DNA from: a virus
Lineage: Duplodnaviria > Heunggongvirae > Uroviricota > Caudoviricetes
Virus record (IMG/VR): IMGVR_UViG_3300042549_006728
DNA length: 64,000 nucleotides
Direction: 5' to 3' (one strand)
The number at the start of each line of letters is the position of its first letter. Position 1 is the stretch's first letter. Shown here one piece after another: positions 11,050 through 54,160 of the stretch. The notes under the pieces were generated by a model. That model ran no database searches. It saw only the letters and a list, made by a program, of their open reading frames with translations, and was not told where the DNA came from. The translations under genes and the position numbers were made by a program.

Positions 11050-11418
11050 TTATCCTTTAATTATTTGTTTTGATTTAACCCCCAATTCCTTATAATGGGA
11101 AAAGTAAGCGTCTATTAGTTTATCTATGCGTGAGTCAGTATATTTTTTACTATCATCGGAAGATATTTCTATTGCCCGATATAGATCAGTTGTATACCTA
11201 TCTGTCATACTATGTACTTCTCTAAAAGTTTCATGAACATTACGTTCAGCATCATCTATTCTTTTATGTAAGTTTTGTTCTACAATATTAATTAAAATAT
11301 GTAGATTTTCTTTTTCTTTAGTTAATTTTTTAACCTTAAGCATATTCCATATAGTAACTGCACTTAATAGCACAATTAATACAGACGCAACACCTAAAGC
11401 GAATGAAATTGTTTCCAT
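11050..11418 (-). CDS. N-terminally membrane-anchored coiled-coil protein
   Basis: Hydrophobic residues 4-25 followed by a heptad-like region; bracketed by a 12 bp inverted repeat. Confidence 0.7.
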   Translation of the reverse strand: METISFALGVASVLIVLLSAVTIWNMLKVKKLTKEKENLHILINIVEQNLHKRIDDAERNVHETFREVHSMTDRYTTDLYRAIEISSDDSKKYTDSRIDKLIDAYFSHYKELGVKSKQIIKG

Positions 11419-11443: not shown

Positions 11444-11653
11444 TTAATGAAACGCCCGTTTCTCTATATTATTTATTGTAATTATTTCGTACCTCCACCC
11501 ACTGTCTGTGTTGGTATTTAATATTTCACAAAGTTTTGTTGCCTCATCTATACAGTCAGTTTCAAAAACCTCATTTAGTGAATTTAATAATAAAACATGT
11601 AATTTCTTACTGTTTAATACCATAATTTTTTTTATTTGATAACTATTATTCAT
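11444..11653 (-). CDS. Small hypothetical protein
   Basis: 69 aa; overlapping start/stop in the thyA operon. Confidence 0.6.
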   Translation of the reverse strand: MNNSYQIKKIMVLNSKKLHVLLLNSLNEVFETDCIDEATKLCEILNTNTDSGWRYEIITINNIEKRAFH

Positions 11654-11858
11654 ATTTTTTATTTTTTATTTCTTTTTTATAATCTACCCAACTTAACCAA
11701 AACCCAATACCTACTATTACGTTCATACTTATGGATGCCAATATTTCATATACGTCTTCATATATGTTAACACTTAAATGAACATGACCTACCATCCAAA
11801 AAGGTATTGATAGGTTCTGACTAACCCATAATAACATATATTTAATAAAATATTTCAT
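11646..11858 (-). CDS. Small membrane protein
   Basis: 70 aa with two hydrophobic segments. Confidence 0.6.
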   Translation of the reverse strand: MKYFIKYMLLWVSQNLSIPFWMVGHVHLSVNIYEDVYEILASISMNVIVGIGFWLSWVDYKKEIKNKKYE

Positions 11859-12095: not shown

Positions 12096-13346
12096 TTAAT
12101 TTGATAAAGGTGCTTTAATTGTTGGGTGTGATTGATAGTCTTTAATTTCAAAGAGGTCAATTGGATACTTTTCCATATCATAATCGAGTATTCCCGGATG
12201 AATGTCTAATATTGGTAATGGATATGGTTCTCTTGTTCGGGTTGGTAGATTTGGATGATGTTGTTTTAACCAATCTTCAGCTATATTGATTGTATGTTCG
12301 TCCCATTTAAAACCATCTCCATCTGGAAATCTATCGTCAAATGGTGCAAAGTTTGCTAACTTACAACGTTCTTCCAAACTCAATTCTCTACCAATCTGTT
12401 CCTTTGCTTGTTCAATATGATTCAAATATAAATGTGTATCACCTAAGTTACCAATTAATTCATCTGGAACCATGTTAACTAATTTAGCAATGATTTCTAA
12501 TAACAATCCGTATGATGCTATATTAAACGGAAGTCCTAAGAATGTATCTACTGAACGTTGATTCCACATTAGAGAGATTGCTCTGGTTGGAATTTCACAA
12601 TCATTCATTATTTTAATGTTCAAATCTTTTATATATGAATTTGTTTCAGTTCTAAAATTCTTAGTATTGGGTTTAAATATATCGCATCTTTCTTCATAAC
12701 TCAACTCTCTTGTATAAACTTGAAATCCATAATGACAAGGTGGAAGAACCATTTGATATAATTCTCCTGGATTCCATGCGGTAACCATTAATCGTCTACT
12801 GTCTGGGTTTGTTTTAAGGTCGTTGATTAGATTTTCAAGTTGATCACATTTTGACACATCTTTAAATGATGTTACTGATCCATGATCCCAACCACTTGGA
12901 ACTTTATTATATCCACCAAACGCTCTCCATTGTGCCCCATAGATTGGACCTAAATCACCCAATTCTTTAGCGACCATTGGATTTGTTTTTATTTCGTTGA
13001 TGAACTCCTCTTTTGTGAATTTATTAACTGGAGGTGATAAAAATTTACCTTCAGTTTCCCACCTTCTCTCATAATTCTTATACGCATCACCATCCCAAAT
13101 ATGACAATCATTATCAACAAGGTATTTGATGTTTGTATCACCACGCAAAAACCATAACAATTCTGTTACAATAAGTCGAAATGGTATCTTCTTTGTTGTA
13201 AGTAAAGGAAACCCTTCTGACATCTTGTGTCTGATTTGTCTTCCAAATACAGATAGTGTACCAGTTCCAGTACGGTCTTGCTTAGTTACTCCGTTATCTA
13301 GGATATCTTGAAGTAAGTCTGTGTATTGTTTATCTAGTGAATTCAT
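12096..13346 (-). CDS. thyA: Thymidylate synthase with insertions; start probably MNSLDKQY at 13346
   Basis: DRTGTGT, FPLLTTKK, ELLWFLRG, catalytic LPPCH, QRSVDTFLGLPFNIASY and GDTHLY motifs. Confidence 0.95.
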   Translation of the reverse strand: MNSLDKQYTDLLQDILDNGVTKQDRTGTGTLSVFGRQIRHKMSEGFPLLTTKKIPFRLIVTELLWFLRGDTNIKYLVDNDCHIWDGDAYKNYERRWETEGKFLSPPVNKFTKEEFINEIKTNPMVAKELGDLGPIYGAQWRAFGGYNKVPSGWDHGSVTSFKDVSKCDQLENLINDLKTNPDSRRLMVTAWNPGELYQMVLPPCHYGFQVYTRELSYEERCDIFKPNTKNFRTETNSYIKDLNIKIMNDCEIPTRAISLMWNQRSVDTFLGLPFNIASYGLLLEIIAKLVNMVPDELIGNLGDTHLYLNHIEQAKEQIGRELSLEERCKLANFAPFDDRFPDGDGFKWDEHTINIAEDWLKQHHPNLPTRTREPYPLPILDIHPGILDYDMEKYPIDLFEIKDYQSHPTIKAPLSN

Positions 13347-13463
13347 TGACTGTAATTTTAACTTTGCCTGACGTAACCATATCAATTACCTTCATACATT
13401 CCTTCATGTTTTTACAACCACTTAGGTCCACTTGAATCAAGTGTCTTTTTTTAACTTTATCGT

Positions 13464-30324: not shown

Positions 30325-30519
30325 ATGGAAAATAAAATAGTTAAATGTTGTAAAGAATGTCCTTGGGATATTAGGAATAAAAATAATGACTCAATAGTAG
30401 AACATTCTAAAAAATGGAAGAAGAAACATAATTGTCATATGTTGATAAAAGGTAGGGAATACAAACTTTGGGATGATTTCCCAAAGTTCCAGTGTATAGG
30501 GAACAAATCTATTTTTTAG
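30325..30519 (+). CDS. Small Cys/His-rich protein
   Basis: CCKECPW...HNCH...C; directly follows the previous stop. Confidence 0.55.
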   Translation: MENKIVKCCKECPWDIRNKNNDSIVEHSKKWKKKHNCHMLIKGREYKLWDDFPKFQCIGNKSIF

Positions 30520-31210
30520 TATCTACTTGATCCAATTCTTTAATTTTTTCTATTAGTTTTGCATACGTATTTTTTTCAGTTATCCCATTAGGATTTAATC
30601 CATTCTCTTTTTGGAATTTTCGTATTGCATCCATAGTAAATTTACCGTATTTAGAATCTACCCCATCTTTTTTTGGACCAAATTTACCGATAAAATAATC
30701 CATCTTAATTAACATAGTTTGTATTTCACCTACTAGGTTGTTATAACAACCTTTTCTAATGATACTACTACCTAATACGTCAGTTTCATCTGCGGCACAA
30801 TCGATTGTAGATTGTGTTTGTTTTTTTATGGTTTTACCACCACCCTCTAATCCGTAACAAACATTTTTTAAAAACAGACACACTTGTTCTTTATCTTTAG
30901 TCAGTTTTGTTTGAAATTCTCTAAGTTCTTCTATAATATCCTCAATAAATTCGTCGAGTACCACACTCTCCTCAACCTTCGATGAAGAAGAACAAAAATC
31001 TCCCTCTTTCACTACCTCTCTTTGGGTATCACCAAAAACATATATAACTTCTGAAGCAGATGTTTCTGCAACACACTCATTTTTATAAACTAACGTGTCA
31101 CCATTTTGGGTACTTTTCGCACAAACAGGATTCCATTCCCCACCACATTTATAGTAGTCTTCTTTAAGGATTAACTTATTAAACTGATTTTCAGTTATTT
31201 TAATTTTCAT
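30509..31210 (-). CDS. Leader, Kazal-like module and peptidoglycan-binding domain
   Basis: C...WNPVC...G.T.VYKNECVA; VGEIQTML...DSKYG..T..AIRKFQKENGLNPNG. Confidence 0.75.
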   Translation of the reverse strand: MKIKITENQFNKLILKEDYYKCGGEWNPVCAKSTQNGDTLVYKNECVAETSASEVIYVFGDTQREVVKEGDFCSSSSKVEESVVLDEFIEDIIEELREFQTKLTKDKEQVCLFLKNVCYGLEGGGKTIKKQTQSTIDCAADETDVLGSSIIRKGCYNNLVGEIQTMLIKMDYFIGKFGPKKDGVDSKYGKFTMDAIRKFQKENGLNPNGITEKNTYAKLIEKIKELDQVDTKK

Positions 31211-31452: not shown

Positions 31453-32235
31453 TTAGTATGTTGCTTTATATCCATCACAATTTTTGATACACCAATCACC
31501 TAAAGCTTTAATTCTATTTTGTTCTTCAGTAGGTATACCTGTAGAAGGCATTTTATTAACATATCCAGTTGTAAATGTTTTACTACAAAGACTACAAGAT
31601 AAATCTTTTCCACTTTCTTTTTTATTACCTCTTAAACAAAACTCAAATCCTTTATAATCAGGATCTGTAACACTAAATATATATTTTTTAACACAGTCTT
31701 TTAAATTTTCACAATCAACTGTATCTATAATTTTTATGGGATCGATAATATAATCATCTATATCATCTTGCCAATCTTTGTCATCTTGCCAATCTTTGTT
31801 ATCTTGACAATTACAATCGGTACAAAATTTTGGTTTAGGTAATGATTTAGAGAATGACAATTTTTTACACATCATTTGCCAAGTATTAAACCCGACTTTA
31901 CCGTCAGCAGTTAACCCAAATTTGTTTTGAAACTCTTCTACTGCCCCTTTAGTTTGGTTTTTAAATACTCCATCACATTTCGTCCAGTCAGAATAACACC
32001 AATCACCACTCATACCACCACCACTGTACTTAGTATTAAATTGGTTTACGTATAATAAATGCTGAATCATTTTAACAACGTCACCGTTTGATCCGTACAT
32101 TGCCAACTTTCTTTTACATATTATTTCACATAAATCATCACCTATTTGTATGATACCAGTGTAAGCCTCATTTAGAACACTTTTAACTATCTTACTTAAT
32201 TGACTTTCAGTTAATTTAATTACTCTTTTTTTCAT
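31453..32235 (-). CDS. Cys-rich peptidoglycan-binding domain protein with leader
   Basis: MKKRVIKLTESQLSKIVKSVLNE; GS.GDVVK.IQ...DG.F...T..AV..FQ..FGLTADG.VG..TW. Confidence 0.8.
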   Translation of the reverse strand: MKKRVIKLTESQLSKIVKSVLNEAYTGIIQIGDDLCEIICKRKLAMYGSNGDVVKMIQHLLYVNQFNTKYSGGGMSGDWCYSDWTKCDGVFKNQTKGAVEEFQNKFGLTADGKVGFNTWQMMCKKLSFSKSLPKPKFCTDCNCQDNKDWQDDKDWQDDIDDYIIDPIKIIDTVDCENLKDCVKKYIFSVTDPDYKGFEFCLRGNKKESGKDLSCSLCSKTFTTGYVNKMPSTGIPTEEQNRIKALGDWCIKNCDGYKATY

Positions 32236-37515: not shown

Positions 37516-38124
37516 TTAATATCTTGTATTATTAGTGACAAAATCACCTAAGAATAATCTATAGTTATCCCATAATATTTTAAGATTTTTACCCTCAATA
37601 TTAAACATATCGGAACAATAACTAACGAATTTTGGTGGTGGGGTTTCTAGGTTTAATAAATATAGGATATCTATATTCTCATTACTACTATATCTTAACG
37701 AAATACTATTGACAAAAAAAGGTACCTTTAATACTGAAGAGTTAACTTGATAGGTATCATCTTCAAGAATATTTAATATCTTATCTAAATACGTAACCAT
37801 TCTATCATCCGATTCGTTAATAGTTTTTTTATTATAAACAATATCTATTAAAAAATCTTTATATTTTTCCCATACATAATCGATTTGATTATCATCTTCT
37901 AACACATAATTATCATATAGATAATCTACTAATCCCAGTGGTATAGAATTATATCGTAAAATCCCTTTCATATTTGCTTCAGTAAATGCTCTATGGTTAC
38001 TCCAAGGTAACTTAAAAAATAATAAGAATGTCGTATCGGCAAGAGATTGAGATTCTTGAAATTTCGTGTTGGTAATTAAATCATTAATGATATAATTTAA
38101 ATATTTTTCTATTCTACTGTTCAT
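37516..38124 (-). CDS. Two-domain DDT-family polyprotein
   Basis: YLNYIINDLITNT...YVWEKY, TINESDD linker, YLDKILNILEDDT. Confidence 0.8.
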   Translation of the reverse strand: MNSRIEKYLNYIINDLITNTKFQESQSLADTTFLLFFKLPWSNHRAFTEANMKGILRYNSIPLGLVDYLYDNYVLEDDNQIDYVWEKYKDFLIDIVYNKKTINESDDRMVTYLDKILNILEDDTYQVNSSVLKVPFFVNSISLRYSSNENIDILYLLNLETPPPKFVSYCSDMFNIEGKNLKILWDNYRLFLGDFVTNNTRY

Positions 38125-38794
38125 TTATAAAAATTTCTCCCATCTTATTCATTAATAAAACCGTTGATCCTAAACCAAAACTTGTTACTATCGAAGGATT
38201 TTTATTTGTGTACTCCCTAAATATTTCCAACATCTCTTTAAGGATATAGTCCATATATGTGTCACAAAATTTCTCAAATGACTCTACAGTACCATCATTT
38301 TCTAAGTATAGTCCATATGAATTTTTAAAATCATGTATTTTTACCACATACATATCACTTCTATCCTCGAATTGTTCATATGTCATACTTTCTAAAAGAC
38401 TGTCAACAGTTTGATATATAATTTTAATTAATTTTTGTTTTAGATCCTCACTAAAACCGTCAAATTTTAAAAAATCTGATGGGTTACCCATCATCCATTG
38501 GTGATGTGAGGTAATATTTTCAGTAATAGTTTCTATATTACCACCATATCTTCTATCTTTTAATTTTGAGACATATCTATCCCATACATATCTAACCTCT
38601 GATCGGGCAACCCCATAATTATCTTCAATATATTCCACAAATAAAATGTAAGGTGTTCCTTGATTCTTTAAAAAATATTCCCAACCCACAACACCAAATG
38701 GTGAGATAAGTTTTAAAGGGAGATCACTAATTTTACTATCGTCTACTAAAAAATCAACAATTCTATTCAAATATTGTATGTTTCTAACACTCAT
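38114..38794 (-). CDS. DDT-family domain plus an unrelated domain
   Basis: YLNRIVDFLVDDS...YGV...YVWDRY; ITE linker. Confidence 0.75.
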   Translation of the reverse strand: MSVRNIQYLNRIVDFLVDDSKISDLPLKLISPFGVVGWEYFLKNQGTPYILFVEYIEDNYGVARSEVRYVWDRYVSKLKDRRYGGNIETITENITSHHQWMMGNPSDFLKFDGFSEDLKQKLIKIIYQTVDSLLESMTYEQFEDRSDMYVVKIHDFKNSYGLYLENDGTVESFEKFCDTYMDYILKEMLEIFREYTNKNPSIVTSFGLGSTVLLMNKMGEIFINEQ

Positions 38795-38856
38795 ATATGT
38801 TTTTAAATAAATATCGTATAAAAACAAAAATATAAATGTAGATACGAATAGATTTA

Positions 38857-39144: not shown

Positions 39145-40485
39145 TCAATGATATATAGGATCTCGTACACCCCATTCATTTATTAGTATTTGATTTATTT
39201 CATTAATATAATCTTCCCACACACTATATGATTCGTCTTTAGTTAATCCATAAGTGTCACTACAATAGTTAAAGAAATCCTCCCTATCGAAATGCATAAT
39301 TCTACTATATACTAAATGAGTAAAAGGGACGAAGATATTTATCCAATCCGATGGCCACATACGATGAGGTTCTATTTGTGTATCATTTACAATAAATTCT
39401 AAAACTTTATCTAAATAATTTTTTCTCCTATCATTAGATTCTTTTATTAACCTATCCCTTTTAGGAAATTTATCAAACATAATCTTACTATATTTTTCCC
39501 ACACAACATCAAACTCTTCTGAAGTTGTACCATAATGTTTATTACAGTAATCTGAAAATTCATTATAAAATACTTCATTCGGTGATAATAAGGACATAAA
39601 TGAAGAATAAAAATTTATCGATGGGTATACTATCATTTGTAATTTAGGGACAATACTTGTATCACCAATTAAAGATTCTACAACCTTATCTAAAAATCTA
39701 TTATTAGTTTCTACCGATTCATTAAGACTATTATCTTCCATTTTATCCTCTAATTCTTTTTTTAATTTGGTGAATAATATTTTTATATACCTATTAAAAA
39801 TTTCTAATATTAGAGATGTATCGGTTATTCCATACTGATTACTTATGTAATTTACTTCTACATCATTTAATGGATAGTCTCCCATAAAATTTAAATGATA
39901 ATCTGCCCCATTCCAATCCTCAGTATATATCTCACCATCACCATAAAATGGATATACAATTCTCGCCACAGGTTCGTCTTTAATTGTTTTAATCTTATAT
40001 TGAGTATCTTCTAACATAAAATTAACAATCTTATCTATAACCATATTTTCTTTATCCCCTACAGATTCATTAAGACTATTTTCACTATAATCATCTGAAT
40101 ACCCTTCAGAGTTTTCATAATATATTGCCATACTCTTATCATTATATTCGTATTTTTCCCAGTACCCATCACTCTCTTCATAATATATCATATTCCCCAT
40201 TTCATCGTAATCTCTTAATGTCCACGGACCATTATCCCACTCAACGTATAAAGGAAGTTTAGGTGGGTTAGTAGGGATATTAATAGATATAATTGTTGCC
40301 TCACTATTTATATTTCTATCTATTTCTAAAGAATTTTTATCTTTATTAAAAAGTAATGAAAATACATCTAACCATTTATCGGTAGGTATTTTGAACATCC
40401 TTAAGTCCTCAATATAAGGGGGTTTCATAACACTTACTACCTTTTGGGAGTAATTATCATCATTTATAGATTCATTAATTTTCAT
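39145..40485 (-). CDS. Four-module polyprotein: one KPY/beta-repeat module and three DDT-family domains
   Basis: MKINES start; LNESVG, LNESVE and IKESND linkers. Confidence 0.8.
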   Translation of the reverse strand: MKINESINDDNYSQKVVSVMKPPYIEDLRMFKIPTDKWLDVFSLLFNKDKNSLEIDRNINSEATIISINIPTNPPKLPLYVEWDNGPWTLRDYDEMGNMIYYEESDGYWEKYEYNDKSMAIYYENSEGYSDDYSENSLNESVGDKENMVIDKIVNFMLEDTQYKIKTIKDEPVARIVYPFYGDGEIYTEDWNGADYHLNFMGDYPLNDVEVNYISNQYGITDTSLILEIFNRYIKILFTKLKKELEDKMEDNSLNESVETNNRFLDKVVESLIGDTSIVPKLQMIVYPSINFYSSFMSLLSPNEVFYNEFSDYCNKHYGTTSEEFDVVWEKYSKIMFDKFPKRDRLIKESNDRRKNYLDKVLEFIVNDTQIEPHRMWPSDWINIFVPFTHLVYSRIMHFDREDFFNYCSDTYGLTKDESYSVWEDYINEINQILINEWGVRDPIYH

Positions 40486-43045: not shown

Positions 43046-43870
43046 TCACTTAAGTAAGTTATAGTACTCTTTGAAGTGTTTTATTCTATCAGGTAAACCA
43101 ATTGTACCCCCATTTACTCTTTTTGTGACTGCGGTTACTGTTGAATCGTCCGCACCTTTGTCACAGATACTCCATAACTTATTAGAATCAAAAAAGAACG
43201 CCGCAGATGCCAATGGATACTTAGTCGCAACCAAATCAGGGTTAGAAACACAATCTTCACCGATAAATTTGGTAAAATTAGTGTAATTTGACTTACCAGT
43301 TAACTGAATATACCCTCTACCTCTAAATTTAAACCCTTCTTTGGTAGTTTCGTCACCATTACCCATTCTACTTGCGTAAACACGAGCCGCAATCTTCTCA
43401 GGTTGACGTGCATATGACTCATTTAAGTTACCTGGAAAGTATTTACCAAATATTTTCTTCAAACCGTCCGCAGAATAGTTTAAATTCTCTGAAACTGCCT
43501 TAAAACCACCTGATTCGTGACCACATTGAGCTAAAAAGTGAGCTAAACGTAAGTTATTTGTAATATTAAACTTTTTTGCAGTCTCAGGAATCTGTGCAAT
43601 GACAGAATCAGGTATATGACCCTTTAATTTTTCAATATTTAATGACCCACCTGAAGGAATTACAACATCTTCTTTTATTATTACGGTTGACCCAAACATT
43701 TTTAACCATGTTCCGTCACCAACAACACCATCTGAGGTTAATCCATTAGCCGATTGCCATTCTTTTACCGCTTTTTCTGTTCCGGGTCCGAATGATCCAT
43801 CCGCAGTAAGACCTAATTTTGTTTGGAGTTTTTTTACGTCTTCTCCTTTAGACCCATTTTTTAATAACAT
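43046..43870 (-). CDS. Endolysin: peptidoglycan-binding domain plus GH19 catalytic domain
   Basis: LKNGSKGEDVKKLQ...DG.FGPGT; FLAQCGHESGGF...ENLNYS; FRGRGYIQLTG..NY; VNGG..G..DR. Confidence 0.92.
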   Translation of the reverse strand: MLLKNGSKGEDVKKLQTKLGLTADGSFGPGTEKAVKEWQSANGLTSDGVVGDGTWLKMFGSTVIIKEDVVIPSGGSLNIEKLKGHIPDSVIAQIPETAKKFNITNNLRLAHFLAQCGHESGGFKAVSENLNYSADGLKKIFGKYFPGNLNESYARQPEKIAARVYASRMGNGDETTKEGFKFRGRGYIQLTGKSNYTNFTKFIGEDCVSNPDLVATKYPLASAAFFFDSNKLWSICDKGADDSTVTAVTKRVNGGTIGLPDRIKHFKEYYNLLK

Positions 43871-43936
43871 AACCTTTAATTTTATAATAAATATTCTAAA
43901 AATATTTTAAATCTTTTTTTAGTGAATATATGTAAT

Positions 43937-43965
43937 AAAAAAAACCCAGTATTTTAACTGGGTTC
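43937..43965 (-). terminator. Intrinsic terminator after the kinase-receiver-membrane operon
   Basis: aacccagt/actgggtt stem with an A-run on + (U-run on the minus-strand transcript). Confidence 0.65.
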
Positions 43966-43992
43966 TTATTTTAATTAAATATTCTCATCTTC

Positions 43993-44475
43993 TTAGTTTA
44001 TTTCACCATCTACCGATGATTCTTCTGTAGGGTACTCCTCAACAACCAAAGGAGTTTCTTCTTTAACTTGTGTATCTACAACAGTTGATCCTTGTGGTGG
44101 TCTTGGTGTTGTCGGATATTCCGCAACATTAGAAAAACTATTTCCGTCTTCCTCATCAACTTTCTGAATTAACATCTTATCTCTGTCTTCAGAGTTGAAC
44201 CAATAATCAACAACTTTATTAAGATTACCTACGAAGGCCCCGAATAAAATTAACAACATTTCTTTCCAGTTTTCTGCAATTTCAATTTGAAACATAACTG
44301 CCATATTAATACCAAAAATAATGAAGAAAAACAAGAATAAAATAATCCCTGTAATCTTCCATCTATTAGATTGCATTTGTTGCAACATATAATAGAAACG
44401 ATTTTTATCCTCCACTTTAACATAAGGAGTTTCCCCGAATAACATTTTTTTTAATCTACTTACCATTTTTTTCAT
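43993..44475 (-). CDS. Two-TM membrane protein, holin-like
   Basis: TM1 ITGIILFLFFFIIFGI, TM2 MLLILFGAFVG...VVDYWFNS; acidic tail; next to the endolysin. Confidence 0.6.
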   Translation of the reverse strand: MKKMVSRLKKMLFGETPYVKVEDKNRFYYMLQQMQSNRWKITGIILFLFFFIIFGINMAVMFQIEIAENWKEMLLILFGAFVGNLNKVVDYWFNSEDRDKMLIQKVDEEDGNSFSNVAEYPTTPRPPQGSTVVDTQVKEETPLVVEEYPTEESSVDGEIN

Positions 44476-44483
44476 TTTTTTTA

Positions 44484-45164
44484 TTATTTATCTTTGTTAG
44501 GACTTGCACCATATTTTACCCCAAGTATTGTCCCCACTATACTGAAACTATTTGTTAACAGAATACCAAACATATTACTCCAAGTGGATCCAATAATCTC
44601 AGTATCCTTTCCTATTGTCATAGAATAAACATATATTCCCGTTGTGACACACCCAACACCTATAATTACATAAAGTGCAACCTTAACAATATTATTAATC
44701 AACTCAAACTGAGTTTTCTTTTGAACTATATCTAAATTGTTTTCTGCCTCATTTTTAGCATTTTCTGCAACGACTCTTGCCTGTTCAGATTGTTTCATAG
44801 CCTCAATCAGTTCGGCACTTATTTTTTCATTCTCTAGTTTCCATTCAAGAAGTTCAGAGTTTTGACTTTCAATCCGATTGTTTTGATCCTCCATACTGGT
44901 TAAAGTATTTTGGAGTTCCTCCACCATTCTTTGGTTTTCATCGTTGAGTATAGTCAAATCTTTGTTCTGAACCTGAACCTGTTTGGTTACCTCCAAACGT
45001 TTACGTCTAGAATCTTTATCTTTATCCGTACATTTTTTTAAATAGTCTTTAAACAAATCGTTGTCCGATTCAAACAACTTAATAATGTTTCCTTCAAGTC
45101 CGATATTCTTGGACTCAAAGAGTTTAATTAAATTGTTTTCACTATTTTTATCTAACTTTATCAT
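44484..45164 (-). CDS. Coiled-coil protein with two C-terminal TM helices (holin/antiholin-like)
   Basis: Long heptad region, then VALYVIIGVGCVTTGIYV and MFGILLTNSFSIVGTILGV; ATGA overlap with the receiver gene. Confidence 0.65.
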   Translation of the reverse strand: MIKLDKNSENNLIKLFESKNIGLEGNIIKLFESDNDLFKDYLKKCTDKDKDSRRKRLEVTKQVQVQNKDLTILNDENQRMVEELQNTLTSMEDQNNRIESQNSELLEWKLENEKISAELIEAMKQSEQARVVAENAKNEAENNLDIVQKKTQFELINNIVKVALYVIIGVGCVTTGIYVYSMTIGKDTEIIGSTWSNMFGILLTNSFSIVGTILGVKYGASPNKDK

Positions 45165-45598
45165 TTATATACTTTGAAAGGTAAGGTTCTATTTTTATAA
45201 CCTTCATAATCTTTTCTGAACTCCTCTAAACGTGGCTCAATGTCGTCAGATTTGATAATCCAAAACTGAGCTCCCGCTTGAACTGCCTTTGATTGTTCTT
45301 CTGGTTCGTTTGATGATGAAATAATTCCAACAACTACGTGATTACCGTATTCAAAATTAATTTTTCTAATTAATTCTATACCATCAAAAGAACTACCAAT
45401 GATGTTTAAATCAACAAACACACAATCAGGTTTATCATTATCATCCCCACTTTTGAACCATTTTTCGAATTTTTTTGCCGCTTCGTCAGAACTATTTAAC
45501 GCGTTTAAAGACAAACTTATGTCAAGTAACGAACAAGCGTCCTCAAATACTAAATGGAATAAATCCTCGTCATCCACCAATAAAATTGAATCAATCAT
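45161..45598 (-). CDS. Stand-alone response-regulator receiver (CheY-like)
   Basis: LLVDDED acidic pocket, VFVDLN phospho-Asp, ISSS and IIKS Lys; no output domain. Confidence 0.9.
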   Translation of the reverse strand: MIDSILLVDDEDLFHLVFEDACSLLDISLSLNALNSSDEAAKKFEKWFKSGDDNDKPDCVFVDLNIIGSSFDGIELIRKINFEYGNHVVVGIISSSNEPEEQSKAVQAGAQFWIIKSDDIEPRLEEFRKDYEGYKNRTLPFKVYK

Positions 45599-45610
45599 TT
45601 TTTTCTTTTT

Positions 45611-47209
45611 TTATTTTATTTTTATTTTCATTTTAGTTCCTATTTCATTTTTCTCACAAGTAATTTTAAACTTGTGTTCTTCCAAAATTGCAACGCAAAT
45701 ATTTAATCCCAAACCAGTACCTGATTCCTTTTGTCCTTCTTTTCTTGTATATGGTTTACATAGGTAATCAAAATCTTCTTGTGTTAACCCCCTACCATTA
45801 TCTTGAATGTAAACAGTATTCTCATCAGAATATATTTTAACAAACTTAGTGTCAGAATCATTGTACTTTAAACCATTCCTGATTAAGTTGTCAACTGCAG
45901 TACAGAATAACGCTTCGTTTACTTCTATTGTTGGTAAGTCCTCAATAATTACTTGACTACTATATGCGGTTGATGATAGGTAATCAGATAGTATCACTTT
46001 TAAATCGCATTCCGCCTTATTTAAAACAACATCTTTTTTAACAAGATTTGTAAACTCATATACCCCTTTATACACTTTTTGTGAATGTTTAAGACCTTCC
46101 TTAATCATTCTAATTGGTGCCTCTATTTTTAAATCGGTAATGTCTTCGGGTTTTAATCTTCTTTCTAAAGAACTTAATCCTCTTGGCATATATGTATTGA
46201 TACCTGAGTGCATATCGTGTCTTAATATTTTAGCGGCATGTTCTAAATAAGTGTTCTTTTTTTCAATCTCTTTCTTTTGTTCGTGAGTAGTGGTGACATC
46301 TGTTGCAATTTTCATAACACGATAAATCTTACCATCCATACCAATGATTGGATTATAGGTTGCTTGAAGATGTATTAAGGAACCATCCTTTTTAACTCTA
46401 GTGATTTCACCAGTAAATAATATACCATCATTTAATTTTTCCCAAAAAAGAGAATATTCCTCACTTTTTGAGTGGTCCTCATCTATAAAAATCCTATGGT
46501 GTTTCCCAACCACTTCATCCAGTGATGAATATCCCATAGTATTTAAAAACAATTCATTAGCGAAAATTATATTCCCCTTCAAATCAAACTCAATAACAGC
46601 GTTGGATTTATTTATCGCGTTCATTCTATTACGAATTTCCACTTCTTTTTTCTTAAGATCTGTAACATCTTGTCTAATTGATGAGAATCCCTCCAACTTA
46701 CCGTGTTTGTCAAATTTTGCCTTGATGTAGGTATCGACATAATATAGTTCACCTGATTTTCCTTTGTTGGTAACAACATCATTCCATATCTCACCTTTCA
46801 TTACTTTTTCATACATTTTACCCCAATATCCATCAGGTTGTAATCCTGAGTTTACAATAACATGATCCTTACCTTTAACCTCATCTAAAGACCAACCTGA
46901 AACATCCTCAAACTTTTTATTAACGTATGTAATTTTACCGTATTTATCGGCAACAGAAACGATGGTTGCAGAATCAATAAAATCTTCACTATCTTTTATT
47001 TGTTTTAATAAACCATCTTTTAACTCTACGGTTTGGGATTTCATTAAAAAATAAAATAATGGAGAAAATAATAAAAAGCAAGATATCTCAATAATTTTTG
47101 TTATATCAGTGGATCCAATAATCCCCGATAAAACAAAAATTTTAGTTAAAAGAAAAGTAACCATCAAGATTACAGAAGGTATTATTAATAATTTACGTTT
47201 TTTAATCAT
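45611..47209 (-). CDS. Membrane-anchored PAS-PAS sensor histidine kinase
   Basis: Two N-terminal TMs, two PAS/PAC domains, H-box LRHDMH, N-box NLIRNGLKY, G1 DNGRG and G2 GTGLGL. Confidence 0.93.
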   Translation of the reverse strand: MIKKRKLLIIPSVILMVTFLLTKIFVLSGIIGSTDITKIIEISCFLLFSPLFYFLMKSQTVELKDGLLKQIKDSEDFIDSATIVSVADKYGKITYVNKKFEDVSGWSLDEVKGKDHVIVNSGLQPDGYWGKMYEKVMKGEIWNDVVTNKGKSGELYYVDTYIKAKFDKHGKLEGFSSIRQDVTDLKKKEVEIRNRMNAINKSNAVIEFDLKGNIIFANELFLNTMGYSSLDEVVGKHHRIFIDEDHSKSEEYSLFWEKLNDGILFTGEITRVKKDGSLIHLQATYNPIIGMDGKIYRVMKIATDVTTTHEQKKEIEKKNTYLEHAAKILRHDMHSGINTYMPRGLSSLERRLKPEDITDLKIEAPIRMIKEGLKHSQKVYKGVYEFTNLVKKDVVLNKAECDLKVILSDYLSSTAYSSQVIIEDLPTIEVNEALFCTAVDNLIRNGLKYNDSDTKFVKIYSDENTVYIQDNGRGLTQEDFDYLCKPYTRKEGQKESGTGLGLNICVAILEEHKFKITCEKNEIGTKMKIKIK

Positions 47210-47285
47210 ACAAATAAATATAGAAAAAATATTAAAAACTATTTACTTTAATTAATTTTTTCATATTTATAAAAAAATTAAAATT

Positions 47286-47882
47286 ATGAACTATACAAAA
47301 GAACAGGTTGAGGCTGCCGTAAAAGCCAAAGGTTATGTTTGGTTTGAGGACGCAAACAATAAAGGGTATGATGTAAACATTGTCGGTATTAGAAATTCAA
47401 GTACTGGACAAAAAGTGACTAACGTATTTGACGATTACATAACATTATCTTACAAAGTTGATGGACAATGGAAATTCCATATTTGGCCAGCAACTACTGA
47501 TCCAGGTACTAAAGGTGTTATGCAATTTGGTAACAAGGCAGGTGTCGCAAGATTAGTAGAGGGACAATACAGAGGGTCACATACAATGAGACTTCATGCT
47601 GGGAAATATGAAGCATTGGGTCAAAACAAACCAGTTAAAGTTTTCAGAGATCCTAATAAGAATATGGAATATGATGAAAATAAAATTCAAGAAGGTGTAT
47701 TTGGAATTAATATACACAAAGCAGGTGCCGACTCAACTTATGTTGAAAATTGGTCAGAAGGTTGTCAAGTGTTTAAAAAGTCAAAGGACTTTGAAGAATT
47801 TATGTCTATCTGTAGGAAAGCAAAAGGGGTACACGGTAATTCATTTACCTATACACTAATCGAAACTAACGACATTAAATAA
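47286..47882 (+). CDS. YkuD/L,D-transpeptidase-like cell-wall enzyme
   Basis: ATTDPG...GINIHKAG...WSEGCQV (H...S.GC catalytic motif). Confidence 0.7.
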   Translation: MNYTKEQVEAAVKAKGYVWFEDANNKGYDVNIVGIRNSSTGQKVTNVFDDYITLSYKVDGQWKFHIWPATTDPGTKGVMQFGNKAGVARLVEGQYRGSHTMRLHAGKYEALGQNKPVKVFRDPNKNMEYDENKIQEGVFGINIHKAGADSTYVENWSEGCQVFKKSKDFEEFMSICRKAKGVHGNSFTYTLIETNDIK

Positions 47883-48053: not shown

Positions 48054-48437
48054 ATGAAAAGAACCATTAAAAGAATATTAAAGGAAGAACTAACCGAAAC
48101 AGAATATATGGGCGGAATTATTCCCTCACATTTTTTAGAGGAACTGGGAATTAAATTATTTAAAGAAGAAGATGTTGCCAGTCTTACAGAAATACAATTC
48201 GATACAAAACGTGTTGTAATAGATCTTTTTACTCTTGACGGAGACGAAGGATATGGTAGTTATGAAGATGCGATGAGTATACCTGATGGTTTTCAATACC
48301 AATACGGTTTTAACATTAATGATTTACCTGTAAGTTTTATAAAGTACTTAATAAAAGAACTGAATGATAACTATGGTACCAATTATTTGTACCCATTTTT
48401 AGATATAATACCAAAAGGTATGTTTAAGAACCTTTAA
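48054..48437 (+). CDS. Hypothetical protein with MKRTIKRILKEE leader
   Basis: 127 aa; GTATTTAT variant motif upstream. Confidence 0.7.
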   Translation: MKRTIKRILKEELTETEYMGGIIPSHFLEELGIKLFKEEDVASLTEIQFDTKRVVIDLFTLDGDEGYGSYEDAMSIPDGFQYQYGFNINDLPVSFIKYLIKELNDNYGTNYLYPFLDIIPKGMFKNL

Positions 48438-50682
48438 TATAAGAATCAAATTTATCTATAATGATATTTTTATATGTATCCCATACATATTTAATATCGT
48501 CATCAGTCAAACCATACATATCTTTAGTATAATTAGAAAAAGAAGCGGGATAATTAATACGAAAAAGTAAATTATAACTTAAAGAAGATAGACGGTAAAA
48601 AGGTGCGAAGAATATATCGTCATTAATCGAAACTTTAGTATCAGCCACAAGAAATTCCACAATTTTATTTAGATATTCATCTTTTCTATCTACAGATTCA
48701 TTAATTCTATCACCATTCTTTTTTAATAACATTTCTTCATATATAATAGTAGATAATTTTTGTATGTATCTATCATATAACTCTTGTACAGTATCTATAT
48801 CACATATACTATAAGTGTTACAAATATAATCTATATCTTCTCCTTCATCTAAATTAAAACCACTACCATTTGACCAATCATAAATATCATATATACTATA
48901 ATCATATGCATCCTCATCCACATCCTCATCAGGATTAGTAAAAGGGTACCATATTTCTACTTTAGTTTCTGAATGATCACTAAACCTATTAATGTAAATA
49001 TTATATTCGGTATCGTCTATCATAAAATCTACAATCTTATTTAGATAATCAGATTTTCTATCTACAGATTCATTTATATTATTACCTTTAACCCTTAACA
49101 TATCATCGTATATTTTAGTGAATAATTTCTCAGTGTATTTTTTAAATATATCTTCTATGGTTTTTACACTACGTATATTGTACACATCCCACATATATTC
49201 AATCTCCACTCTATTAAGGATATATTCACTCGATTCCTTAATAGTAGATACCTCATATATAGTATAAGGGAATCCAGAGTCTTGTGCAGAATAAGGATAC
49301 CTTATATAGACAAAAATTTCTGTAGAATCGACATTATATTGGGAAATACTAAGTTCATATTCGGTATCGTCTACCATATAATCAGAAATCTTATCTATTA
49401 GATCATCCTTTCTATCCACTGATTCATTAATGGGGACTTTAAATATATTAAGGATATTTTTTTTATATTTACTCCACACCCCTTTTACTTCTGAATTAGT
49501 TAACCCATAACTATCTTTACAATAGTTAAAAAAGTTTCTTTTCAACATATCATCAGATATTTTTTTTAAGTAGACTGTAGAAAACCATATAGATGCAAAC
49601 GATGGTTTAAAAATTCCAAAATCTCCTTCTCCCATAGATATTTCCGTGTCATCTACAAGAAATCCCACAATCTTATCTAAATAATCAGATTTTCTATCCA
49701 CAGATTCGTTAATGGTAGGTACACCATTAATGATAGAAAACCCATTAATTTTAGGGGTTAAAACTTTAAGATATCTTTTCCATAATTTTCTTATTTCCTC
49801 ATCATCTGTCAATCCATACGTGTCTTTACAATAGTTAAAAAAGTTTCTTACATAAGAATTACCAATAAGATATTTTAATTCTAAATGATCTGTCATAGGT
49901 ATTAGACCATAGAAATGATTAAAAGTAGGTTTAGCGTGACCAGTAGGATAAGGTGGATACCACACTTTATTCTTTTGATCCACCATAGTGTCATCCACAA
50001 GGTAATCTATAATTTTATCCATATATTCACCTTTAGAAATTTTATCCACAGATTCATTAATATTATCCTTACCAAATACAATATCCCTCATAACATCCTT
50101 ATATGTTTCCCATACATAAACAATACCCTCTTCTGAAGTAATTCCAAACGACTCATCAATGTATTCCATAAAACCGTCTATAGGGATATATGTCTCAAAA
50201 AGAAGTCTGTGAAAAGGTGTGAAATTATTACTACCTTGTCTAAGTGATCTCTTATATGTAAAAGGAAAAAATATCATCCTATTTTCATAGTCTACTTTAG
50301 TATCATCTACAAGAAATCCCACAACCTTATCTAAATATCTTTTTTTATTATCCACAGATTCATTAATGGGTTTAAGATCATACATAATAGATTCTTTATT
50401 ATATCTATCCTTAATAATGGTTTTATAGTTGTCCCATATATATTTTGTCTCATCGTAATTTAAACCATATGTATCCCTACAAGTTATCTGAACATCTGAA
50501 GGCATACCCCACGAAAGTTTATTTTTTAAATCATCGATAAAACTAGGTAAAGGTTTACCATTCGGACCTATCGGAGAAAAAGGATATATTATAACACCCG
50601 TTTCATATCTAATTATAGTATCATCAACAAACCACTTAAGAATCTTATCTAAATATATTTTTTTATTATCTTCCATATCCAT
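48424..50682 (-). CDS. Seven-domain DDT-family polyprotein
   Basis: Six INESVD linkers separate seven diverged YLDKIV.FLVDDT...YGL...W..Y units. Confidence 0.88.
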   Translation of the reverse strand: MDMEDNKKIYLDKILKWFVDDTIIRYETGVIIYPFSPIGPNGKPLPSFIDDLKNKLSWGMPSDVQITCRDTYGLNYDETKYIWDNYKTIIKDRYNKESIMYDLKPINESVDNKKRYLDKVVGFLVDDTKVDYENRMIFFPFTYKRSLRQGSNNFTPFHRLLFETYIPIDGFMEYIDESFGITSEEGIVYVWETYKDVMRDIVFGKDNINESVDKISKGEYMDKIIDYLVDDTMVDQKNKVWYPPYPTGHAKPTFNHFYGLIPMTDHLELKYLIGNSYVRNFFNYCKDTYGLTDDEEIRKLWKRYLKVLTPKINGFSIINGVPTINESVDRKSDYLDKIVGFLVDDTEISMGEGDFGIFKPSFASIWFSTVYLKKISDDMLKRNFFNYCKDSYGLTNSEVKGVWSKYKKNILNIFKVPINESVDRKDDLIDKISDYMVDDTEYELSISQYNVDSTEIFVYIRYPYSAQDSGFPYTIYEVSTIKESSEYILNRVEIEYMWDVYNIRSVKTIEDIFKKYTEKLFTKIYDDMLRVKGNNINESVDRKSDYLNKIVDFMIDDTEYNIYINRFSDHSETKVEIWYPFTNPDEDVDEDAYDYSIYDIYDWSNGSGFNLDEGEDIDYICNTYSICDIDTVQELYDRYIQKLSTIIYEEMLLKKNGDRINESVDRKDEYLNKIVEFLVADTKVSINDDIFFAPFYRLSSLSYNLLFRINYPASFSNYTKDMYGLTDDDIKYVWDTYKNIIIDKFDSYIKGS

Positions 50683-51800: not shown

Positions 51801-52826
51801 TTATCTATTATAATTTATCATTTCTTCATATATAATAGGACGTAGTTTATTTATATATCTATTATATAGTTCTTGTGTGATCCATCTTTGAGTTATACCA
51901 AATTGTTCTTCTAAATAATCTCTATCAGTTTCATTCAGAAAGAACTGTTCCCAGTCTACTTCCATTTCATCCATTTGAAATTCATCAGAGTCACCACTAG
52001 GGAAAGTTATCTCCACTCTTACATGTCGTTCTAAGTCATCTTCACCTAATTCTTCCATAAAGATATCCCATGTGGTGTCTTGTACCATAAAGTCTACTAT
52101 TCTATTAAGTGTATCCTCTTTTCTTTCTACAGATTCATTCATAGGGTTTTTAGATGATCCTAATAGTTCTTTTACTTTATCATATAATAAAGAATAATAC
52201 CTTTGAGATATATTAGTAATAAGATTCCAATCTTTTATACTATATGTATCATTAACATAATTAACAAAATTCAAATCATAACCTCTCCTTAATAATAATG
52301 GTAATACTTTATCAATACTGTATGAGTTAAATCCTTCAGAAGGGTAAACTATTACCACTCTATCTCTATGAAAATAGTATTCAGTATCATCTAACATATA
52401 CTGTGAGATCTTATCTACTAATAGATCTTCCTTATTCTCTTTAGATTCATTCATTGGTTTACGTTCATAATTATCAAAGTCGTTTAATATGTTTGTAAAT
52501 AAGATTGTATAATACTTTAAATATATTTTTTCTAGAATGGTTTCATCTTTTATACTATAGTTGTCATCCATATAGTTATAATCATATAAATTAAAAAAGA
52601 TTACATCCACCCCTTTCTCTTTAAAATCATTTAGATGAGATCTAATTTCACTCTCATTTAAATATATTAGATAATTATACATTGGATATTTTACCTCACA
52701 TATTATCTCACCCATAAACCTATGGTAGACTTCATATGTAGTATCACCCAGTAGACTCTCTACAACTCTATCTACTAATAGATCCTCTCTATTCTCTTTA
52801 ACAATACCTTTAATGGTTACCTTCAT
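51801..52826 (-). CDS. Leader plus three-domain DDT-family polyprotein
   Basis: MKVTIKGIVKE leader and two PMNES linkers. Confidence 0.85.
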   Translation of the reverse strand: MKVTIKGIVKENREDLLVDRVVESLLGDTTYEVYHRFMGEIICEVKYPMYNYLIYLNESEIRSHLNDFKEKGVDVIFFNLYDYNYMDDNYSIKDETILEKIYLKYYTILFTNILNDFDNYERKPMNESKENKEDLLVDKISQYMLDDTEYYFHRDRVVIVYPSEGFNSYSIDKVLPLLLRRGYDLNFVNYVNDTYSIKDWNLITNISQRYYSLLYDKVKELLGSSKNPMNESVERKEDTLNRIVDFMVQDTTWDIFMEELGEDDLERHVRVEITFPSGDSDEFQMDEMEVDWEQFFLNETDRDYLEEQFGITQRWITQELYNRYINKLRPIIYEEMINYNR

Positions 52827-53086: not shown

Positions 53087-54160
53087 CTAAAATAATCCAC
53101 TATTTTTTATATAATGATGCCACACATATTGTATTTCTTCTATATGTAACCCATACATATTTTCACAATATATAGAAAACGCCCTGAAGGAATGTACTGG
53201 AAGATGTTGTTGTTTGTTAGGAGTAAGTAGGAGTATATTACTAAAGTATGGATATTTAATTTCTCTCTCTTCATAATCTATAATAGTATCATCTATTATA
53301 TACTGTACAATTTTATCTAAGTATATTTTTTTACTGTCTACAGATTCATTCATTGGTTTGGAATTTATCTTATGATTAAATATAACTTTATATTGATCCC
53401 ATACATATACTGATTCCTCATATGTTAATCCATATGTATCATTACAATATTCAGAGAACGCATTAAATAATGGAGATTCAATTGTTGCGTAATATAATGG
53501 TGTTGATAAACCCCATTGGGAATTAATATAAGGAAGAAAAGGATATGTTACTAACTTTTGTTCATAGTCTAGTTCTGTATCATCGATTATATACTGTGAT
53601 ATATTGTCTAGATATTTTTCTTTTCTCTCTACAGATTCATTAATAGATCCTTTATCGTCAACAATAGATTTATATTTTTCCCACACATATATAATTTCTT
53701 CACCTGTCAATCCATATATATCTTTACAATATTTAAGAAAAGAATAGTAGTAAGGAGAAGGTATTATAAAGGGTGGAATAATAGGAATGGGATTATATAG
53801 ATATGGTAGTTTACATAGATTCTTATTGTAATCTATCTCTGTATCATCTATTATATACTGTACAATCTTATCTAGATATATTTCTTTATTGTCTACGGAT
53901 TCATTGATAGATCCAGGAAGTTTAATCTTTCTATTAATTTGAAATAAAAGATTACCATAGACATATAAACAATCATCACTGTTTAAACCATAGTCAAACT
54001 CTAATATATCCCATACCGTACTGAAGAATCCATTTGAAAGAAACTCTACATCATAGGTTCTATTAGATCCATCTAATATCTCTACTGTAGAATGAAGATA
54101 ATTTATTTTAATATCCTCTAACAAATACTCCACTATCTTATTTAAATGTGTTTTATCCAT
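53087..54160 (-). CDS. Four-domain DDT-family polyprotein
   Basis: GSINESVD, GSINESVE and PMNESVD linkers; YLDKIVQYIIDDT units. Confidence 0.88.
   Translation of the reverse strand: MDKTHLNKIVEYLLEDIKINYLHSTVEILDGSNRTYDVEFLSNGFFSTVWDILEFDYGLNSDDCLYVYGNLLFQINRKIKLPGSINESVDNKEIYLDKIVQYIIDDTEIDYNKNLCKLPYLYNPIPIIPPFIIPSPYYYSFLKYCKDIYGLTGEEIIYVWEKYKSIVDDKGSINESVERKEKYLDNISQYIIDDTELDYEQKLVTYPFLPYINSQWGLSTPLYYATIESPLFNAFSEYCNDTYGLTYEESVYVWDQYKVIFNHKINSKPMNESVDSKKIYLDKIVQYIIDDTIIDYEEREIKYPYFSNILLLTPNKQQHLPVHSFRAFSIYCENMYGLHIEEIQYVWHHYIKNSGLF

Follow-up and report, generated by a model that had tools for sequence, protein, structure and literature searches.

Lysis inhibition has been studied in the T-even phages, with holin T and antiholin RI, and in Vibrio phage ICP1, with holin TeaA and antiholin ArrA (PMC11413866, PMC7182436). 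According to these reports, a sensed condition shifts lysis timing by way of a membrane protein with an effect on hole formation, and the genes for the regulators lie among or close to the lysis genes. Both features would be shared by the locus described here, which lies in a 64,000-nucleotide stretch of a tailed-phage genome (IMG/VR record IMGVR_UViG_3300042549_006728; the whole stretch is called the window below). It consists of genes for a sensor histidine kinase, a receiver-only response regulator and a coiled-coil protein with a C-terminal two-helix membrane hairpin (CC2TM). From sequence comparisons, this triad is far more likely to be a long-standing phage lineage than a recent capture, and we lean, if only slightly, towards reading it as a phage relay in which the kinase, likely reading the redox or energy state of the host, acts on CC2TM to set the time of lysis.

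Unlike such a relay, the T-even and ICP1 systems, in those reports, work by direct holin–antiholin binding triggered by superinfection and involve no kinase, receiver or phosphorylation; the signal here would be intracellular, and the T-even and ICP1 proteins show no sequence relation to CC2TM or to the 160-amino acid (aa) membrane protein encoded after it in the window. RIII is a further antiholin in T-even lysis inhibition. A parallel in signalling comes from bacteria: in Staphylococcus, LytR induces expression of lrgA (PMC5717393). In that article, the LytSR two-component system, which responds to membrane potential or metabolic state, is tied to the holin- and antiholin-like proteins CidAB and LrgAB, much as is proposed for the phage. 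LytSR is, however, chromosomal and bacterial and acts by transcription, whereas a DNA-binding domain is absent from the phage receiver, which would be linked to CC2TM at the post-translational level; the CidAB and LrgAB membrane proteins are also unrelated to the phage ones. The flavin adenine dinucleotide (FAD)-binding sensors Aer, MmoS and NifL resemble the phage kinase in its first PAS domain (PAS1; see below), but their output lies in chemotaxis or transcription control, where the phage has a kinase plus a membrane hairpin. CheY, with FliM, and DivK are single-domain response regulators working through contact with other proteins. The phage receiver is like these in having no output domain and in being predicted to act on a protein partner; it differs in being viral and in its partner, which would be a membrane protein dedicated to it and coupled to it in translation. 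None of the lysis inhibition, LytSR–Cid/Lrg or FAD-PAS systems combines a viral kinase, an output-less receiver and a dedicated membrane effector. The initial annotation of this DNA, made from the sequence alone, knew of no described case of the arrangement; likewise, no description of a phage two-component system in a lysis module was found in the literature searched, most subscription journals being outside its scope. The accessible text of a jumbo-phage survey, covering 224 phages, mentions a receiver-like domain only of another kind, tied to nicotinamide adenine dinucleotide systems (PMC7824862).

Viral contigs were searched with the kinase from the window, which gave 105 relatives, of which 80 were kept; open reading frames (ORFs) were called and clustered, and gene order was mapped. 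This left 81 loci, of which four were cut by contig ends and 77 had enough DNA for comparison (the window included, the duplicate L001 excluded). The order kinase, receiver, CC2TM was kept in all 77, and the receiver and CC2TM reading frames overlap in 76. Because CC2TM always follows the receiver, nearly always with overlapping frames, it is supported as the receiver's fixed partner. The receiver is the most conserved part of the triad, with 77–98% identity to that of the window, compared with 61–94% for the kinase and 49–82% for CC2TM in the same loci. A second scan, carried out with a more distant receiver, gave 24 loci, and the receiver ORF was called in 22 of them (not in the other two). 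These 22 loci all place a kinase immediately upstream of the receiver; CC2TM follows immediately in 21, and in one it lies two genes further on. No viral locus was found with query P0125. Of the gene order whose conservation the initial annotation had put forward as a check, the part from kinase through receiver to CC2TM is seen in both sets of loci. The sensor parts of the kinases vary and include PAS-PAS and GAF-PAS-PAS forms, as well as short forms and second kinases without a recognised sensor. Judged by these architectures, the family appears to follow a pattern of many sensors and one output, with sensor parts swapped freely while the receiver stays conserved.

Other genes were seen in or beside some of these loci. 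In L021, L022 and L032, the tblastn match to the kinase is longer, at about 2.1 kb rather than 1.6 kb, and the ORFs are 707-aa GAF-bearing kinases. L045–L049, L050 and L068–L078 have a pair of kinases and, between them, a secreted protein (cluster c17, about 205 aa) whose signal peptide is of the Bacteroidota type, an arrangement that suggests a periplasmic co-sensor for the second kinase. A homing-endonuclease-like gene with a NUMOD3 motif (E = 5.6e-8) lies between the second kinase and the receiver in L068, L069 and L078. A full-length DnaK/Hsp70 homologue (cluster c10, about 620 aa, named from a look at its sequence) is found a few genes from the triad in L008–L015, L027–L030, L069–L073 and L078.

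The AlphaFold2 model of CC2TM (predicted local distance difference test (pLDDT) score 83) contains a small head (residues 1–35), an unbroken helix (36–184) that runs directly into the first membrane helix, and a second helix (189–219); in a hydropathy scan, the hydrophobic helices start at residues 153 and 198. The rod between head and membrane is a rigid coiled coil of about 115 residues. Conservation peaks at residues 1–77, covering the head and the first part of the rod, and again from 133 through the hairpin, which holds invariant residues and whose second helix is rich in small and polar ones. Between N67 and Q148, both invariant, the rod measures 81 residues in 160 of 166 unique sequences, and the other six fall short of this by exactly 7 residues in two sequences, 35 in three and 42 in one, all multiples of 7. 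A heptad register can also be seen, with hydrophobic residues at 59% of a/d positions as against 31% overall. Such features would be expected of a coiled coil that carries a signal and preserves its phase. With no signal peptide and a lysine-rich, positively charged C-terminal tail, CC2TM probably has its rod in the cytoplasm; it was also considered as a spanin and rejected on these grounds. Homologues of CC2TM number 4839, and no Pfam domain was found among the best 120 of them.

When bacterial and archaeal genome contigs were scanned with the CC2TM alignment, eight loci were found (L082–L089). Four of these carry the kinase–receiver–CC2TM set, and the other four (L085–L088) carry fusions, in which a single protein of 256–372 aa combines the CC2TM hairpin with one or two PAS domains, a short helix linking the two parts, and both kinase and receiver are absent. 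The fusions are 51% identical to the CC2TM of the window over 107 residues and 53% identical to the second PAS domain (PAS2) of its kinase. A database search with the fusion hairpin returned 3112 proteins, with PAS domains in all of the best 120, and a search for longer fusions gave only one 458-aa protein, without a Pfam domain. Since the head and upper rod can be replaced by a sensor domain, the hairpin is predicted to be the output of the relay and the head is the likely docking site for the receiver. One public source labels PAS-hairpin proteins (P0277–P0391) as "methyl-accepting chemotaxis protein"; this label is unsupported here, and no signalling domain of that class was seen in their Pfam lists.

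The receiver and the kinase both proved to be as initially annotated, the former a receiver-only regulator with its DD, D, S and K residues and the latter an intact protein with two transmembrane helices, two PAS domains and the H, N, G1 and G2 boxes. The receiver scores 37.6 bits against PF00072 (cut-off 30.2), and D9, D10, D63, S94-96 and K116 are invariant in all 22 aligned sequences, for which mean column identity is 91%. An output domain is lacking; beyond the receiver domain there is just a conserved C-terminal tail of 28 residues. Its best matches in the PDB are weak (3ilh, E = 2.6e-5), and membership of the CheY subfamily was unsupported. Receiver domains are very common in cells. Among 1.84 billion representatives, this receiver has 197 matches at E ≤ 1e-3 and 58 at E ≤ 1e-10, and by this measure it looks very divergent from cellular receivers.

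The kinase begins with a membrane anchor of two hydrophobic helices, starting at residues 6 and 36 in the hydropathy scan, which is followed by PAS1 (about 77–190), PAS2 (about 191–310), a predicted DHp domain and a catalytic domain. Pfam reports two PAS stretches (PF00989, E = 2e-17) and HATPase_c at 435–531 (PF02518, E = 2.4e-14), and PDB chains 4jas and 3dge align over 347–524. The phospho-acceptor candidate of this predicted domain, H331, lies within an RHDMH run that at least 98% of the 67 unique relatives keep; for the N, G1 and G2 boxes, N445, D470, G472 and G474 are present in all 67, and G499 and G501 in 66. PAS1 matches the FAD-binding PAS domains of MmoS (3ewk, E = 4.2e-22), Aer (8dik, E = 1.9e-15) and NifL (2gj3, E = 1.6e-7). 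The 3ewk alignment was read against the flavin-pocket residues of MmoS named in PMC9668731 (T103, G107, H132, N164 and R195). Four of these five are kept, with G91, H116, N148 and R179 of PAS1 corresponding to MmoS G107, H132, N164 and R195, and G91 and H116 are found in all 49 PAS1-bearing relatives. Because PAS1 both matches FAD-PAS domains and keeps these pocket residues, it is plausible that a redox or energy signal is sensed through it, at a putative FAD site.

In 49 of the 77 loci a gene of a recognised lysis family is found no more than 500 bp from the triad, and at a limit of 3 kb the number rises to 56; ten arrangement classes can be distinguished. Among these genes are GH19, Amidase_2 and a YkuD-like enzyme (with or without PG_binding_1), together with Phage_holin_10 (E = 3.4e-17) and Phage_holin_4_1 (E = 3.9e-6). 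The classes include those with GH19 directly after CC2TM, with GH19 divergent upstream of the kinase, with the YkuD-like enzyme divergent upstream, with an Amidase_2 endolysin replacing GH19, with a PG_binding_1–YkuD-like gene and Phage_holin_4_1 co-oriented upstream, and with Phage_holin_10 just after the endolysin. An endolysin directly follows CC2TM, which then stands in the classical holin position, in 29 of the 77 loci. One more distant type of triad has GH19 1.4 kb downstream. Fusion genes adjoin GH19, Phage_lysozyme, PG_binding_1–YkuD-like and Phage_holin_4_1 genes, and those of L087 and L088 have lysis genes on both sides.

In the mechanism that we propose, PAS1 would bind FAD and report the respiratory or redox state of the cell, and this PAS-sensed cytoplasmic signal would determine, through the membrane-anchored kinase, whether the receiver is phosphorylated. 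The phosphorylated receiver would bind the CC2TM head by protein contact, a change that would travel along the rod to the hairpin. The latter would itself be a regulated holin, or an antiholin-like regulator of another holin, which in the window could be the 160-aa protein; by promoting or blocking the formation of membrane holes it would set the time of lysis, with delay and trigger both possible. Holins fire when the membrane is de-energised, so that with a redox sensor the phage would be able to read the same variable early. More tentatively, and with somewhat less confidence than doubt, environmental jumbo phages may be pictured as carrying a self-contained sensory lysis clock, running from a flavin-PAS kinase that reads the respiratory state of the infected cell, through a receiver, to a hairpin of a new, signal-gated class (a regulated holin or antiholin), with a modular output that is also mounted on PAS sensors.

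Several observations weigh against a relay that sets the time of lysis, or against parts of its route. No recognised lysis gene lies within 3 kb in 21 of the 77 loci (five with a truncated flank, sixteen with adequate flanks), and three of the four distant loci examined (L095, L098 and L108) have YceI, dUTPase, PhoH or type IX secretion system-tail neighbours. The synteny counts come from phages related to one another and do not amount to independent events. The endolysin of the window forms its own unit, beyond a terminator and with a start motif of its own; no match to a holin family was found in Pfam or PHROGs for CC2TM or the 160-aa protein, and the 160-aa gene is present in only 15 of the 77 loci. 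Within the kinase, Pfam reports no HisKA-type domain, from which the dimerisation domain appears to be divergent; A87 stands in place of MmoS T103, so that the FAD site is argued from four of five pocket residues, and PAS2, the type found in the hairpin fusions, has no assignable ligand. The initial annotation had proposed that a phosphorelay gates lysis through the coiled-coil membrane protein, and this is now partly borne out, on comparative grounds, by the CC2TM partnership, the PAS fusions and the lysis context, and drawn into question by the loci without a lysis gene, the scarcity of the 160-aa gene and the endolysin behind its terminator. It had also named the occurrence of the kinase–receiver pair apart from membrane and lysis genes as a sign to the contrary; the membrane protein accompanies the pair in every one of the 77 loci, and it is the lysis genes that are missing within 3 kb in 21. 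Many of the same facts would suit an explanation that we consider unlikely but take seriously, namely that relay and hairpin have the host membrane as their target but a role unrelated to lysis, for example superinfection exclusion, control of ion flux or membrane energisation during infection, or anchoring of a replication or assembly site. Closeness to lysis genes would then reflect a shared neighbourhood of late, membrane-directed genes. The unrelated neighbours in distant loci, the separate endolysin unit and the missing holin match all fit such a role, as does the presence of Phage_holin_10 or Phage_holin_4_1 in many loci, where an extra hole-former is not needed. Harder to reconcile with it are the at least four unrelated enzyme families and two holin families that adjoin the triad or fusion in many arrangements, the 29 loci with an endolysin directly after CC2TM, and the two fusions flanked on both sides by lysis genes. 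Counted in favour of a relay acting on lysis is also that the operon, the endolysin and the terminase gene of the window all bear the start-proximal motif ATATTTAT.

The absence of an output domain from the receiver, and the known exploitation of host two-component systems by phages, would also allow it to be a decoy or phosphate sink directed against host signalling, with CC2TM merely as a membrane tether. We regard this as very improbable: every locus keeps an intact and highly conserved phage kinase, the dissimilarity of the receiver to cellular ones (197 matches in 1.84 billion) argues against mimicry of a host partner, and the PAS-hairpin fusions need no receiver. Almost no weight is given to a recently captured host two-component system (a moron) without a dedicated phage function. 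Two-component systems are typically cellular, and the eight CC2TM matches in L082–L089 are on contigs binned into bacterial metagenome-assembled genomes. These eight contigs, however, bear eight different phylum-level names and hold a phage-type triad or fusion beside lysozymes and holins, and for these reasons they are probably mis-binned viral DNA. The nearest atlas clusters of CC2TM are 96–100% viral, the receiver is isolated from cellular receivers, and the triad is kept in relatives whose kinases are down to 61% identical to that of the window. Recent host capture was accordingly rejected, and of the two origins that the initial annotation had wished to tell apart, a phage clade and a host acquisition, the phage lineage is supported by the isolation of the receiver and the viral CC2TM clusters.

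All genes listed in the initial annotation were found where it had placed them (Table 1), and its description of a tightly coupled run followed by a terminator agrees with the layout seen. On the minus strand, the order is kinase, receiver, CC2TM and 160-aa gene, then the terminator-like hairpin, which had been put at about 43950, and then the endolysin. Kinase and receiver are separated by a 12-nucleotide gap, receiver and CC2TM overlap by 4 nucleotides, and CC2TM and the 160-aa gene are 8 nucleotides apart. The motif ATATTTAT is present ahead of the kinase as annotated and is at the same time a general start-proximal motif. It occurs in 47 copies genome-wide (28.5 expected), 26 of which lie no more than 40 nucleotides upstream of a start on the same strand, and it precedes 25 of the 92 genes. 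Because these include the terminase gene, it was ruled out as a marker of the lysis cluster.

Table 1. Positions of the kinase operon and adjoining features in the window
Feature	Coordinates	Strand	Basis or remark
Endolysin, PG_binding_1 + Glyco_hydro_19	43046..43870	-	Pfam, PHROG
ATATTTAT start-proximal motif	43887..43894	-	16 nucleotides before endolysin ATG
Terminator-like hairpin with T-run	43940..43967	-	Between operon and endolysin
Small membrane protein, 160 aa, last operon gene	43993..44475	-	Hydropathy; holin-like by position and topology only
CC2TM, coiled-coil protein with C-terminal two-helix membrane hairpin	44484..45164	-	AlphaFold2, hydropathy, homologues
Receiver-only response regulator, 145 aa	45161..45598	-	PF00072
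Sensor histidine kinase, 532 aa	45611..47209	-	Pfam, hydropathy, PDB matches, residue conservation
ATATTTAT start-proximal motif	47214..47221	-	4 nucleotides before kinase ATG
ATATTTAT start-proximal motif	47263..47270	+	15 nucleotides before 198-aa gene
Predicted peptidoglycan enzyme, 198 aa	47286..47882	+	PHROG; divergent from kinase operon

Both domains expected of the downstream endolysin were recovered, PG_binding_1 (PF01471) with E = 1.3e-12 and Glyco_hydro_19 (PF00182) with E = 1.1e-9, and the protein matches the endolysin family phrog_181 (E = 1.9e-66). Two further minus-strand genes of the window (30509–31210 and 31453–32235) have endolysin PHROG matches through a peptidoglycan-binding-like stretch only, and no catalytic domain was seen in them. 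The divergent gene upstream of the kinase had been annotated as L,D-transpeptidase-like. Its 198-aa product has no Pfam match; it matches phrog_3000 (E = 8.7e-35) and phrog_33083, an "endolysin" family (E = 4.8e-10), and the gene is fused to PG_binding_1 in L038–L042 and L087, so that the product is likely a peptidoglycan enzyme. The active site motif of YkuD enzymes is His ... Ser/Thr-x-Gly-Cys. In the 198-aa protein, H144 and S157-E158-G159-C160 are invariant in all 15 sequences. Single-sequence and profile searches against PDB sequences gave chance matches only. YkuD-fold chains make up 17 of the top 21 structural rows for its AlphaFold2 model, with Z scores of only 3.0–5.0. As this model is poor (pLDDT 56) and the Z scores are weak, the fold is possibly that of YkuD (L,D-transpeptidase/carboxypeptidase), a weaker assignment than in the initial annotation.

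The last gene of the operon had been called a holin-like protein with two membrane helices. In the strict hydropathy scan, the 160-aa protein shows a single strong helix, at residue 38, and a second hydrophobic stretch at about 70–89 is weaker and was read by eye. Its only PHROG match is phrog_38564, of unknown function (E = 2e-4), and its nearest atlas clusters are viral and unnamed. Position agrees with a holin, since CC2TM and the 160-aa protein are small membrane proteins encoded on the endolysin strand immediately upstream of the endolysin; one membrane helix and the place in the operon thus stand, and the second helix is weaker than annotated. No Pfam-recognised holin was found within the 64-kb window. 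Elsewhere on the minus strand of the window, the gene at 11050–11418 encodes a 122-aa i-spanin-like protein with an N-terminal membrane helix and a coiled coil, which shares 37% identity with a spanin-like protein (phrog_739, E = 0.002) encoded after the triad in L068–L073. A 70-aa membrane protein is encoded nearby (11646–11858, minus strand), and the two may be a spanin pair distant from the endolysin.

The window is AT-rich, with a G+C content of about 27–33%, and is part of a large tailed phage. It starts with genes for a portal protein (phrog_213, E = 5.6e-56) and a large terminase (phrog_2, E = 1.2e-43), and PHROG matches identify a ClpB-like ATPase, a thymidylate synthase and a DNA methyltransferase among its other genes. 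A protein identical to its CC2TM is encoded on a contig of 281,944 bases, and the viral contigs with relatives of its kinase reach 304 kb. Genes of Cellulophaga, Bacteroides and crAss-like phages are similar to those for the endolysin and the 198-aa enzyme, and type IX secretion tails occur on proteins encoded by relatives; from these likenesses, the host is likely a member of the Bacteroidota. The thymidylate synthase (12096–13385, minus strand) has 429 aa and matches a 335-position PHROG profile from end to end, leaving about 100 extra residues that could be an insertion. Also present are paralogous repeat-module proteins, encoded at 48424–50682 (minus strand), 51801–52826, 53087–54160, 39145–40485, 38114–38827 and 37516–38124, which all belong to cluster c28 and have no Pfam family. 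Their modules of about 110 aa open with a motif like INESVDRK..YLDKIV.FLVDDT, and the largest of these proteins, with 752 aa, has about six of them.

The time of lysis sets the burst size and fitness of a phage, and to our knowledge the known controls of this timing are holin accumulation clocks and superinfection-triggered lysis inhibition. If the proposed relay is real, a viral phosphorelay with its own membrane effector in the lysis module would be a third principle, in which an intracellular variable adjusts bursting, and lysis timing would be a computed decision, not a fixed holin countdown. The hairpin with its heptad-phased rod would represent a compact, transplantable signal-to-membrane output. 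The family is abundant, with 4839 CC2TM homologues and 3112 fusion-hairpin matches, on contigs of up to about 280–460 kb, and such a relay, if real, would affect how the host mortality caused by large phages of likely Bacteroidota hosts is modelled.

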